The notes beneath the pieces are model-generated. The model was not told where the DNA came from. It saw only the letters and a program-made list of their open reading frames with translations, and ran no database searches. From Dictyostelium discoideum (Eukaryota), in NCBI GenBank assembly GCA_000004695.1, contig CM000153.2, positions 1,856,001 through 1,920,000 of the forward strand: DNA of 64,000 bases. The letters are read 5' to 3'. Shown here in pieces: positions 23,566 through 32,545 of the stretch. The first letter of the stretch is position 1. Every line of letters starts with the position of its first letter. Position numbers and translations under genes: made by a program.

Positions 23566-23638
23566 GCTCGATTAGCTCAGTCGGCAGAGCGTGGTGCTAA
23601 TAACGCCACGGTCGCAGGTTCGATCCCTGCATCGAGCA
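23566..23638 (+). tRNA. tRNA-Ile (anticodon AAU)
   Basis: GCTCGAT/ATCGAGC acceptor stem, D-arm TAGCTCAGTCGGCAGAGC, anticodon stem TGGTG/CGCCA with loop CTAATAA, B box GGTTCGATCCC, discriminator A, then a T5 Pol III terminator (23642-23646). Confidence 0.9.
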
Positions 23639-28052: not shown

Positions 28053-29252
28053 TTAATTTGACAAAGACATTACCATAGATTTAACAACACCCATTTGAAC
28101 ACCTAATTGAGAAGCATAATCAGCTCCAGTAAATGACCACCAATCAAAACAACCTTTTGGATTTAATTCAGTTTCCAATGCTTGTGGATATAATATTATA
28201 ATATTATTTGTCTCAGCGATTTCATTGTAACCTGTTTTTGTATAAAAATTATCACCAATTGTTGCAACAGTTTGTAAACAACCATGAAAAGCAACATGAA
28301 TTGAACATACTTTATTTTTAAAAAAAAAAAAATTAATTACTTAAATAAATATTAAAATAAATAAAGAATAAAAATAAATTAATAAATAATAAAAAACTTA
28401 CAAGATTTATCATTTTTACAAGAAGTTGGAATATATGCATATGCAAAATTATTTAAACCAGCTGTGATTGTTGTATATCCAATTGGTATGAATGATGATT
28501 GATCAATTGTAATAATCTAAAAAAATATTAAGTTAGTAAAATTAAATTAAAGAAAATAATAAATAATAAATAAATAATAATAATAATAATAATAATCTTA
28601 CATTTTCAGTTAAATTATTTAAAGATGGTTGATTTAATTCACCATAAAATTGTGATAAAAAGTCCCATGGTGCATTGAAATTACAATTATTTATATAATC
28701 AGGACCTAAGTACGTACAATTATTACCAAATGAGTTTGTGATGAAAGCATGTTCTGATTGAATATCGAACATGGTTTTAATGTTATCATTATTGACATAG
28801 TTTGAATAGTATTCAACCAATTTTCTCATTACACCCGGTACAACAACTGTATCATTCATACCAGAGTATAACCAAACTTGACTATTCTTTAAATTGGATG
28901 GATCGTCAATTGTTAATGAAGTTGCTGCAAATTCAGTTGCACCAATTAATTCTGTGATGCTAATTAGTTCTGGTGCTTTCATACAATCCAATTGTGCTGT
29001 GATTACACTAGATTTTGCACACCAGTATGGTCCACCCGCTAAAATTGCCGCACCTCTTACCATTGATGAGAATGCAACATGGAATTGTACTGCCATATAA
29101 CCACCACTGCTAATACCTGATACTGTAATTTGGTCACTCGACTTTACATTATTTTTAAAAACTTTTATACATAATATTGGTGATATAAATATTAAATTTA
29201 AAATTAAAATTATTGATAATAAAATATAATTATATTTATTATTATTATTCAT
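28053..29252 (-). CDS. Secreted esterase of the PHB-depolymerase family (Esterase_phd-like), about 340 aa; exons 28602..29252, 28402..28516, 28053..28309
   Basis: Signal peptide, then GISSGGYMAVQFHVAFSSMVRGAAILAGGPYWC, and in the last exon VAFHGCLQTV..NPKGCFDWWSFTGADY, the hallmark of PHB depolymerase-type esterases. Phases 0/1 are consistent. Confidence 0.7.
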
Positions 29253-29300
29253 TTTTTTTTTTTTTATTTATTTTGTTTTGTTTTTTTTATTTTGTTTTAC

Positions 29301-29347
29301 TGACTTTTAACACAAAAAATAAAAAAAATTTTCACATTTTTTAATAT
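29301..29347. repeat. Terminal inverted repeat, left copy (TGACTTTTAACACAAAAAATAAAAAAAATTTTCACATTTTTT)
   Basis: The reverse complement of 31521..31567 matches over 47 nt with 1 mismatch. Confidence 0.6.
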
Positions 29348-29440
29348 TAAAAAAAAAAAAAAATTTCAAAAAAAAAAATAAAAAAAATAAAAAAAAAATA
29401 AAAAAAATAATTAAAACAGTTTTATTGATTGTAAATTGAT

Positions 29441-30946
29441 TTATTGTAATTCTTTTAATTCATGAAATTGAAAAATGAGGGATTCAACAAATTTATTTAT
29501 TGTTTGAATTATTTCCGGAGGTTGATTTTCTGGATTTTTACATTCTAATTCCATTTCATGATATTCACGGTGCAGAGAATATGAATTTAGTATTAAATCA
29601 AACAAACCACCTAATATAAATAATTTAGTATACGAGTGGGAAGAGCTACCTCTAATTGTAGCATAGTAACGTTTGTCTGTGATGTCTACAAGGTTGTACC
29701 AGAAAATATATTGATCATGAATCATTTGGGAACGATTCTGATGAGTACCAATAACTTTTATTTTTAAATCTTGTAGTTCCTTCTTGGAATAATTTTTGTT
29801 TTTATCATATATCCCACCATCTTGAGTGCTATCCAATGGTTCTAATATTTTTTTAATTTTGTCGTTTTTGTTAAGATTGTTGTTTTCTTTTTTGTATTTA
29901 TCATTATATATTTGAGCTATGTGTTCAGCTGATAATTTCTTCAACATTTGTTCGTTCCAAAAAGGACCACATGGTGGTTTTACAAAGTTAGTTTTATATT
30001 TGCCATTTAATATTTCCAATGTTGTCCCATGCAGTGTCTCACCAACAAAAATTAGTTCTAATTCTTTTTTTGAAAAACGAAATAAATTTCCAATAGTTGC
30101 AAATTGTTCTATATTTAGATTATTATTAATTTCCACATATGGGTTTGAATATCTTGAATATAGATTTGTTGCAATGCAATTGATATGACCAGCGGTATTT
30201 TTGGTATACTCGTACAATAGTCCTGTGCTTTCATCATAAAAAAGGAATGTTTTATGTATGGTTAATAAAGGTTTGACGAATATTTTAATTTCTTGAGGAA
30301 CAGTCACGCCACTCTTCCTTGTTGAGGATAAAATACGACATTTCAATTCATCTAAACATTCTTTATTATTTACTAATGCAAAGGCACTATCGCAACATAC
30401 GATTAAGTTATTCCTTGGATCCTCCCAATTATATTTTGAATGTAAATTATCCAAAAGGGTTTTTAATGAATTGAAAGGAGATTGACAGTTTTCTGGTGTT
30501 CTTGGACCATAACTAATTACATATGGACAATTACTAATATTCAATTTGGTTGTTAGACTATATGCTTCAATTCCGACTGAATGGGGTTTGCTATCATTAT
30601 TAATCAATATATGATCTTTAATAGCATCTTTCCCATAATATGCGTATATTGTTTCATCACAATTGAGAACGTTACCAATATTAATATATTTCAATGCACT
30701 GTTCATAAATATTTCACAATATTCTTCAAATCTATGACTTTTCATATCCAAAACATTATGTACTGCTGAATATCTATTGTGATCCATCATTTTTAAATTA
30801 ATTAATTCAGGTGGTATCTTATCATTGTTTTTATTTGAATAAATATTTTTTAAATAATCAGTTATAAATTTCCAGAATGTAATATCGGTTAAATCATTTA
30901 ATCTTGAAATATCCTTCCCTTTATCTAATTTTTTTCTCCCTCTCAT
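29441..30946 (-). CDS. PiggyBac transposase-like protein (DDE_Tnp_1_7-like), 501-aa main ORF; possible extra 5' exon(s) at about 31040-31300
   Basis: Collinear piggyBac motifs: MDHNRYSAVHNVL (cf. MSRDRFDFL), CDETIYAYYGK..DSKPHSVGIEAY (cf. IDEQLLGFRGR..NKPSKYGIKI), LIVCCDSAFALVNN (cf. ITCDNWFTS, first catalytic Asp), KCRILSSTRKSG (cf. LTIVGTVRSNK), LFYDESTG (cf. SSCDEDAS, second Asp). The third-Asp region is not recognisable and there is no C-terminal Cys-rich finger. Confidence 0.55.
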   Translation of the reverse strand: MRGRKKLDKGKDISRLNDLTDITFWKFITDYLKNIYSNKNNDKIPPELINLKMMDHNRYSAVHNVLDMKSHRFEEYCEIFMNSALKYINIGNVLNCDETIYAYYGKDAIKDHILINNDSKPHSVGIEAYSLTTKLNISNCPYVISYGPRTPENCQSPFNSLKTLLDNLHSKYNWEDPRNNLIVCCDSAFALVNNKECLDELKCRILSSTRKSGVTVPQEIKIFVKPLLTIHKTFLFYDESTGLLYEYTKNTAGHINCIATNLYSRYSNPYVEINNNLNIEQFATIGNLFRFSKKELELIFVGETLHGTTLEILNGKYKTNFVKPPCGPFWNEQMLKKLSAEHIAQIYNDKYKKENNNLNKNDKIKKILEPLDSTQDGGIYDKNKNYSKKELQDLKIKVIGTHQNRSQMIHDQYIFWYNLVDITDKRYYATIRGSSSHSYTKLFILGGLFDLILNSYSLHREYHEMELECKNPENQPPEIIQTINKFVESLIFQFHELKELQ

Positions 30947-31520
30947 GTCTAAGATTTGTATTAATTAATGAAATTAAAAATTTTGATAAATCTTCATTTA
31001 ATAACAATTTAAAAAAAAATAATTCATTATAAACCTGACCATTATTTTCACTTTCAATCTTTTCTCTATTTATTGATGATTTTCTTGGTGTAGTGTTTTC
31101 AACAATTTCGCTATAATTAATTGGTCTAACTTTATTATTAAAAATCCAAAATAATTTTTCAGCTTCCCTTTTTTAAAAAAATAAAAAATAATACAACAAA
31201 TTATATAAAAAATTGAAAATGTTATTTAATGAAAAATAAATTTAATAATTATAAATTTTAAAAAACAAAAAAGATCACAAATTAACATACTCATTTCTCA
31301 TTTTTTGATCAATTTGGGCATTTGTAATTATTGTTTTTGAAATATTACTTTCTTTGTTTATTTTTTCTGATTTTTTTGTCATTTTATTTATAGAATGGTT
31401 AAATGTTCAATAAAAAAAAAAAAAAAAAAAAAAATACACACACTTTCATTTTAATATTTGTTTTCAAAAATAAATATCTGAATTTTTATTAATTTTTTTT
31501 TTTTTTTTTAATTTTTTAAG

Positions 31521-31567
31521 GCGTAAAAAAATGTGAAAAATTTTTTTATTTTTTGTGTTAAAAGTCA
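31521..31567. repeat. Terminal inverted repeat, right copy
   Basis: AAAAAAATGTGAAAAATTTTTTTATTTTTTGTGTTAAAAGTCA is the reverse complement of the left copy. Confidence 0.6.
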
Positions 31568-32545
31568 ATAAAGAAAATTTAAATTTTCAATTAAAAAAAT
31601 AAAATAAAGTGTGATTGTAAAATAAAAATAAAAATCTCTTTTTGATTAGGAAAAAGGTAAATCACTTTTTTAATTTTTTATTTTTTTTTTTTTTATTTTT
31701 TATTAAATTCATAGGGAAAAAAAAAAAAAAAAAAAAAAGCAATCACTTTTATTAAAAAGATTTTTTTTTTTTTTTTTTTTTTTCTATCACCTTCATCCCA
31801 ACTTCCAAATTTTTTTTATTTTTTATTGTCACGTTTGGGTTCGTTTTTTTTTAATTTTTTACGGAAAATATTTTTTTCATTTTTTTTTTTTTTTTTTTTT
31901 TTGTCAATTTTCGCTCAATAAATTCTAAAATTTTTTTCATTTTTTTTTCAAACCAAATACCAACAAATTGTAAGTCTATATAATTTCAAATAATATTTTT
32001 AGTGTTTTTTTTTTTAAGTGGTTATATATTTTTTGGTGATGAAAAAAATTTGCTACTGCTGCATTTAAAGTGATGACTTTCCAATTTACATCAAGATCTC
32101 TGACAATTAATATATATCCATTAAAATTTTAAAACCAAAAATTTTATCTTTTATTTGCATATATATATTCACAATAAAAACAAATTGTTAACAATTTTTT
32201 TTTTCACAAAAATAGATTTAGGTCAAATTACGCTCTTGATTCAATTTTTTACCTTTACCATTGCTCCTTTTATTAGCTTCTGTGTCAATCTTTTAAATTT
32301 TTATAAAAATGATTTTAAATAAAATATTAGATTTATCAAAAAAAAAAAAAAATTGTATTTCATTTATTAAAATAATCTTATTTTGTTTGTTAAAATTTTA
32401 TTTGTCAAAGTTTTGGTATAAAAAATAAAAAAAAAATTTCACCCCATACAAACCCAAAACACCTTTTTTTTGACATTTATTATTTTTTTTTTTTTTTTTT
32501 TAAAAAATTTTATTTGTATACAATTTGTATTAATATTTTTTAATT

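Follow-up and report, generated by a model that had tools for sequence, protein, structure and literature searches.

The window analysed here is a stretch of 64,000 nucleotides (nt) from Dictyostelium discoideum (assembly GCA_000004695.1, contig CM000153.2, forward-strand positions 1,856,001 to 1,920,000), and our subject is a unit at 29300-31568 of this stretch, in which a single gene on the minus strand, sslA1, is enclosed by a pair of terminal inverted repeats (TIRs). The window contains 78% A+T and agrees with a D. discoideum assembly at 99.65% identity over 3.5 kb. Considering its ends, its copies and the relatives of its protein, the unit is probably a full-length copy of a low-copy and recently active cut-and-paste transposon of the piggyBac type, which belongs to the D. 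discoideum group and carries sslA1 as its gene.

An open reading frame (ORF) of 501 amino acids (aa) on the minus strand, around which the earlier note had described the locus, is present at 29441-30946 and turned out to be part of exon 3 of a three-exon gene, whose spliced product of 575 aa matches the NCBI model ACTFIT_006355 (P0001) exactly. The ORF list revealed no second substantial ORF within the unit. For the deposited protein AAM34288.2, the fitting splice donor (A/GTGAAA, near 31051) lies about 12 nt upstream of the one that ends exon 2 in our splice model. A copy on another chromosome (L006, see below) has six A where the window copy has seven and reads through “intron 2”, giving a protein of 605 aa (P0128); the window copy is in frame only with intron 2 spliced out, the form that AAM34288.2 fits as well, and intron 2 may rescue a frameshift in this copy.

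The name of the gene was provided by the 90%-identity cluster of the window protein, which includes the “suppressor of smlA” SslA1 (SSLA1_DICDI) together with AAM34288.2 and a degraded paralogue, SslA2; in strain AX4 one and the same SslA1 sequence is listed under two accessions, XP_638582 and XP_642279. In the literature, sslA1 has been described as developmentally essential, of unknown molecular function and restricted to D. discoideum (PMC4931340), in a paper that refers to Gao et al. 2007 for “a novel protein, SslA”. Its phenotype, as PMC4931340 cites it from Gao et al. 2007, is that of a second-site suppressor of smlA that affects how group size is regulated. Our literature searches, in which Gao et al. 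2007 was known via PMC4931340 only, returned no paper tying sslA to a transposase, and according to a 2026 preprint piggyBac is unreported in D. discoideum.

Over 42 nt, the two arms of the TIR (29301-29342 and 31526-31567) are complementary except for a single mismatch; their outer 27 nt match exactly (TGACTTTTAACACAAAAAATAAAAAAA). The repeat had been given in the earlier note as 47 nt long with one mismatch, of which the outer coordinates and the single mismatch stand, while the length comes down to 42 nt because the inner five bases (29343-29347 and 31521-31525) fail to pair. The other copies and the empty sites add one terminal base to each arm, which sets the element at 29300-31568, with extended arms of 43 nt and two mismatches in the window copy; in gene orientation, the ends read [C/T]TGACTTTTAACAC...GTGTTAAAAGTCAG, with TIRs of 42-43 bp. 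The 27-nt core has no occurrence in the 64-kb window beyond the two arms. The features of the locus are collected in Table 1.

Table 1. Features of the sslA1 unit, numbered from the first letter of the window (TSD, target-site duplication; UTR, untranslated region).
Feature	Position	Strand	Basis
Probable complete transposon copy, 2269 bp, first to last TIR base	29300-31568	gene on -	homology limits in six copies with two TIRs; empty sites give [C/T]TGAC...GTCAG
Left-arm TIR, 3' end of gene, CTGACTTTTAACACAAAAAATAAAAAAAATTTTCACATTTTTT	29300-29342		same end in L003, L004 and L006-L009
Right-arm TIR, 5' end of gene	31526-31568		differs from left arm in the terminal base (T not C, gene orientation) and one internal base
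Putative 3-bp TSD, 3' copy: TTA on +, TAA in gene orientation	29297-29299		flanks of copies; one TAA in the empty site L015
Putative 3-bp TSD, 5' copy: TAA on +, TTA in gene orientation, one mismatch	31569-31571		TAA here in L006-L009
Region between 5' TIR and ATG, presumed promoter and 5' UTR of sslA1	31383-31525	-	position only; conserved among copies
sslA1 exon 1, ATG at 31382-31380	31291-31382	-	splice model reproduces P0001 exactly
sslA1 exon 2	31040-31167	-	splice model
sslA1 exon 3, with the 501-aa ORF and the whole piggyBac-like catalytic core	29441-30948	-	splice model, homology
Run of 7 A (gene orientation)	30929-30935		6 A in L006
D171 codon, putative first catalytic Asp, motif NCDETIYAYYGKD...SKPHSVG	30656-30658	-	invariant in 42/42
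D260 codon, putative second catalytic Asp, motif VCCDSAF	30389-30391	-	invariant in 42/42
D495 codon, putative third catalytic Asp, motif FWYNLVDITDKRYY	29684-29686	-	invariant in 31/31 sequences covering the column

Within each TIR, seven bases from the true end, lies a TTAA followed by CAC (CTGACTT-TTAA-CAC...; 29307-29313 and 31555-31561). It resembles the canonical end of piggyBac and may be the vestige of an ancestral terminus flanked by TTAA. A parsing in which the true ends are these internal ones, TTAA/CAC...GTG/TTAA, with the outer CTGACTT as a conserved target, was ruled out, since the empty sites lack the entire CTGAC...GTCAG segment. The “empty” palindrome TGACTTTTAAAAGTCA was found neither in the window nor in 179 kb of related loci.

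After comparison of the DNA of the relatives' loci, copies of the element were recognised at eight loci in D. discoideum and its sibling D. cf. discoideum. Further TIR-bounded copies, for which the earlier note had proposed a search, exist at other loci, and homology to the window unit begins and ends at the TIRs in all six copies that keep both of them. The closest copy (L006) lies on another chromosome of D. discoideum beside a myotubularin gene; it has both TIRs and agrees with the window copy at 99.96% of 2266 nt. Three copies of D. cf. discoideum (L007, L008 and L009), at three loci with unrelated neighbours, show a mutual identity of at least 99.65% and are 95.7% identical to the window copy; all of them carry the same TGA, which ends the 501-codon frame prematurely at codon 326. 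Two more (L004 and L003), with about 95% identity to the window copy, carry frameshifts or stops, L003 being without a 5' TIR, and L001 (sslA2) is 99% identical over the aligned part and degraded, with a 5' deletion and damaged ends. Judging from the gene models in the cluster, D. discoideum would have about 3-4 copies and D. cf. discoideum about 9. From their sequences the copies look recent, two of them being full-length at 99.96% identity and one defective copy having been amplified to three loci, and the defective copies L007, L008 and L009 must have moved in trans, or else have been spread by gene conversion.

An old copy (L002, 5899-8040) of D. discoideum strain ACTFIW shows 83% nucleotide identity to the window copy and an intact ORF of 594 aa, and has no recognisable TIRs; a search around it for terminal repeats gave none that was convincing. 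Between this copy and the window copy, the rates of synonymous (dS) and nonsynonymous (dN) substitution are 0.79 and 0.09 (dN/dS 0.11), and between lineages dN/dS ranges from 0.11 to 0.19, therefore the protein was kept functional while the element moved. This purifying selection and the 99.96% identity to a second full-length copy contradict the view that the window holds an aged copy, which had been considered before. L002 itself may represent an immobilised or domesticated lineage. Its upstream region displays an inverted duplication (AAATACACACACTTTCATTTTAATA / TATTAAAATGAAAGTGTGTATTT), and in strain ACTFIT only a fragment of 187 aa (P0141), 80% identical to SslA1, is annotated.

For an inspection of insertion sites, orthologous neighbour genes were located via exact cluster look-ups and the loci were then compared for empty sites. 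The L007 insertion, situated between a gene for a ubiquitin-conjugating enzyme and its neighbour, is absent in three D. discoideum strains. Read in gene orientation, the sequence is ...TTTTTTTAATGTTTT... (in short TTTTTTTAATGTTT) at the empty site and, at the filled site, ...TTTTTTTAA / CTGAC...GTCAG / CAATGTTTT..., the 3' flank starting with CAATGTTT. The window insertion, in turn, is absent in D. cf. discoideum strain ACTFIZ (L015), where the empty site reads ...TTTTTTTTTTAAAACAAAAT..., compared to ...TTTCTTTA / TTGAC...GTCAG / TAAAACAAAAT... in the filled state. D. discoideum lacks the L008 insertion as well, at a site whose flank is too diverged for a junction at base level, and in the case of L006 no alignment was obtained with intergenic DNA from D. 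cf. discoideum (L016). The empty sites are probably ancestral rather than products of excision. Copies with the same TIRs at different loci and two insertions that are absent in the sibling species support mobility of the element on an evolutionary scale.

The flanks of the copies and the empty sites also bear on the target-site duplication. TAA or CAA directly follows GTCAG in seven of the eight copies, the exception being the degraded L001 with its mutated end GTGC. L006, L008 and L009 are flanked by TAA on both sides, L007 by TAA at the 5' and CAA at the 3' side, and the window copy, in gene orientation, by TTA and TAA, respectively; L004, whose 5' side abuts a solo repeat remnant, and L003, whose 5' repeat is lost, both have a 3' TAA. 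According to the empty-site comparisons, one TAA belongs to the target. The duplication is best read as a 3-bp TAA, although one to three bases are formally compatible with the sequences, since the inverted repeat is itself extended by one base through T, A and A. For a duplication of 4 bp, no parsing of the ends fits the flanks and the empty sites. A TTAA duplication had not been identifiable at the edges when the locus was first described, and on the evidence of copy flanks and empty sites we agree that there is none at the edges of the element.

At ~5775-5817 of L004, the element is directly joined on its 5' side by a solo 42-nt TIR in inverted orientation, with about 81% identity (GTGTTAAAAGTCAA / TTGACTTTTAACAC). 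This solo repeat may be the remnant of another copy or result from aberrant transposition; a motif related to it (ATCTTGAGAATTT) was also detected 3' of L001.

Turning to the protein, a HMMER filter-only search with an SslA profile returned 46 proteins at E <= 1e-3 among 1.84 billion representatives. The best relatives outside the D. discoideum group came from Synstelium polycarpum (1.8e-27) and Tieghemostelium lacteum (3.9e-27), the latter labelled in UniRef as a PiggyBac transposable element-derived domain protein, and many further relatives are encoded on metagenomic contigs of 2-3 kb. Word-indexed protein searches stayed within the genus, finding Dictyostelium relatives only with the window protein and Dictyostelium SslA copies only with an alignment of 42 sequences, and a scan of metagenome loci with P0148 gave no match. 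The piggyBac transposase domain PF13843 (DDE_Tnp_1_7) is matched by 18 of 42 scanned proteins, comprising 40 family members and two SslA sequences, neither of which (P0001 included) is among the 18; in both relatives that were checked, the scores exceed the gathering cut-off of 22.4 bits (27.1 bits for P0143 and 38.7 bits for P0145). Compared by hhalign, SslA and the family without SslA align from end to end and are related with a probability of 99.95% (E = 1.2e-38, 461 columns), and the profile of this SslA-free family finds the piggyBac transposase of Trichoplusia ni (T. ni, 6x67) at E = 2.2e-8. In an AlphaFold model, SslA1 is predicted to adopt the RNase-H-like fold of the piggyBac type, with insertion and DNA-binding/dimerisation domains; a model from an alignment of five SslA sequences was unusable, with a predicted local distance difference test (pLDDT) value of 31.8.

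The order of piggyBac-like motifs reported for the 501-aa ORF in the earlier note is real. In the family profile including SslA, the D171 motif (block NCDETIYAYYG...KPH..G) aligns to D268 of piggyBac (LTIDEQLLGFRG...NKPSKYG) and the D495 motif (YNLVDITD) to D447 (YYNQTKGGVDTLDQ), while D260 is taken as the probable equivalent of D346 from order and motif only. The third catalytic Asp had been suspected to be degenerate, a suspicion that the presence of an invariant D495 removes. On the other hand, the suspected absence of a C-terminal Cys-rich domain holds: in SslA1 the last 90 residues contain one Cys, a Cys-rich (PHD-like) domain is not evident in SslA1 or its relatives among the 42 sequences, and 41 of these have 0-4 Cys in this part, one fragment having eight.

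A chain of homology and the predicted fold, together with the mobility of the element, support the original proposal of a TIR-bounded unit with a piggyBac-transposase-like gene, a candidate transposon of the piggyBac superfamily. As part of this explanation, SslA1, encoded in two or three exons, would be a highly divergent member of the superfamily (DDD triad, RNase-H fold) that lacks the Cys-rich C-terminal domain. We infer an autonomous element mobilised by SslA1, along with its cleavage chemistry and the exact length of the duplication: SslA1 from intact copies would bind the TIRs, excise the element and insert it at TAA, the two ends would be joined with a 3-nt stagger so that TAA is duplicated, and defective copies would be moved in trans. 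Going further, we tentatively consider that SslA1 might be the active transposase of a young autonomous piggyBac transposon and stand for an unrecognised clade without a Cys-rich domain, invisible to Pfam and duplicating a 3-bp TAA.

Several points weigh against a piggyBac-type transposon. PF13843, against which the earlier note would have checked the ORF, is matched by relatives only, SslA1 giving neither this nor another Pfam match even at E <= 1, just as the 605-aa form P0128 matched nothing in Pfam. A PDB sequence search with the 501-aa ORF returned noise only, and when SslA was aligned by hhalign with 169 residues of T. ni piggyBac, the probability was 0.2%. The link between SslA1 and piggyBac, which share about 12-13% identity, is a transitive one that runs through intermediate sequences. 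The alignment behind the AlphaFold model included PF13843-positive proteins. In addition, the empty sites yielded a single clean comparison, the duplication reads TAA, the hallmark of PIF/Harbinger, and not the TTAA of piggyBac, and the published host phenotype of sslA1 would suit a domesticated gene.

This phenotype, a second-site suppressor of smlA that is developmentally essential (PMC4931340), is the starting point for regarding sslA1 as a piggyBac-derived gene domesticated for group-size control, with TIRs that are mere relics of an immobile unit. Strong purifying selection on the protein, the missing Cys-rich DNA-binding domain and L002, which lost its TIRs yet keeps a 594-aa ORF, would all fit such a history. 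It is nevertheless unlikely, as two copies at different loci, L006 and that of the window, have kept their TIRs intact and agree at 99.96%, nonsense-bearing copies occupy three loci, insertions differ between the sibling species, and copy number varies between ~9 in D. cf. discoideum and 3-4 in D. discoideum, where one conserved locus would be expected of a domesticated gene. A fixed orthologous locus with loss of TIRs and of mobility is approached by L002 only, and in part. The same contrast appears with known domesticated piggyBac genes, namely vertebrate PGBD1-5 and the ciliate PiggyMac and Tpb2 (PMC3861120): they share with sslA1 a piggyBac-type protein, a host phenotype and purifying selection, but are immobile and mostly without repeats, whereas the SslA TIRs are intact and the copies polymorphic in position and number. 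At most, SslA1 would be a case of domestication in progress.

We consider it quite improbable that the unit is a non-autonomous passenger, moved by a PIF/Harbinger-type transposase encoded elsewhere, with SslA1 as its cargo (a former transposase or a co-opted protein). The flanks do read as the 3-bp TAA that is the signature of PIF/Harbinger, a Harbinger-type DDE_Tnp_4 gene adjoins L003 (9749-11045), and a second gene of this type is fused in a gene model to an SslA copy (ACTFIZ_004225; PF13359, E = 8e-19). However, the sole gene inside the TIRs is a homologue of DDD transposases whose triad is invariant and whose dN/dS is 0.11-0.19, an arrangement that is normal for autonomous elements; near the Harbinger-like gene at L003 we found no SslA-type end and no convincing repeats, and the unit carries no second ORF of the Myb/SANT type. 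Set beside PIF/Harbinger elements, whose type of transposase gene occurs in the same genomes, the SslA unit has in common the 3-bp TAA/TTA (TWA) duplication and TIRs, but it is without a DDE_Tnp_4 transposase and a Myb-like second ORF, and the predicted fold of its protein is of the piggyBac type. That the inverted repeat arose by chance or low complexity, with the paralogues explained by segmental duplication, is refuted. The genome with its 78% A+T has many homopolymer runs and hundreds of weak inverted repeats surround the unit, but when 28500-32500 was shuffled 100 times with dinucleotides preserved, the longest inverted repeats (up to one mismatch allowed) had a mean length of 17.6 nt and a maximum of 23 nt, so that a TIR of 42 nt is far above chance expectation and the fear of a low-complexity match, raised at the outset, can be dismissed; the same ends, moreover, bound the homology at six loci, and the empty sites lack exactly the segment from TIR to TIR.

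In the D. cf. discoideum gene model ACTFIZ_004225 (P0134), a truncated PIF/Harbinger transposase (PF13359 positions 1-125 of 158) is fused to SslA from about residue 12 on, which suggests insertion of an SslA element into a gene of the Harbinger type there.

Returning to the piggyBac-type transposon, its place among known systems can be outlined as follows. A TTAA duplication marks piggyBac elements, and a 3-bp TAA/TTA marks PIF/Harbinger. With the piggyBac superfamily (T. ni piggyBac 6x67; piggyBat 9c0f; PF13843), the SslA unit appears to share the fold, the DDD triad and TIRs around a single transposase gene, but three customary marks are missing, namely a PF13843 match of SslA1, the Cys-rich domain and the TTAA duplication. 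The ends differ as well, reading CTGAC...GTCAG within TIRs of 42-43 bp, compared to CCC/CAC and short repeats in piggyBac. Published piggyBac duplications, those of variants included, are all 4 bp long (PMC10813416). Bacterial IS4/Tn5 transposases show a much weaker similarity and differ in being prokaryotic and in duplicating 9 bp. The DNA transposons described for D. discoideum, reportedly by Gloeckner et al. 2001 (Tdd-4, Tdd-5, DDT-A/B/S and thug-S/T), belong to the same genome, and none of them is known to be piggyBac-like.

If the proposal is true, the developmental phenotype of sslA1 would be due either to ongoing domestication or to a side effect of the transposase being active, and a DNA-transposon superfamily would be added to the repertoire of D. 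discoideum. A gene until now regarded as “unknown, D. discoideum-specific” (PMC4931340) would obtain a biochemical identity, and the group-size genetics of 2007 would be recast. The piggyBac superfamily is widely used as a tool of genome engineering, and an enzyme with a piggyBac fold, a 3-bp TAA and no Cys-rich domain would broaden the ways in which its members are known to join targets and recognise ends. Mutagenesis in Dictyostelium could, moreover, benefit from an endogenous cut-and-paste element.

Regarding the surroundings, the window's neighbours of the unit are the AX4 genes PHB depolymerase (XP_638581) and DDB_G0284357. On the upstream side of PHB depolymerase, the 3' end of the transposon comes to within only 44 nt of the ATG (29252, minus strand; region 29252-29300). 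The insertion site is empty in D. cf. discoideum, and therefore PHB depolymerase in D. discoideum either has its upstream region shifted away by 2.27 kb or takes it from the element. A tRNA-Ile (AAT) gene is located at 23566-23638 of the window on the plus strand; Dictyostelium tRNA genes are landmarks for tRNA-targeted retrotransposons.

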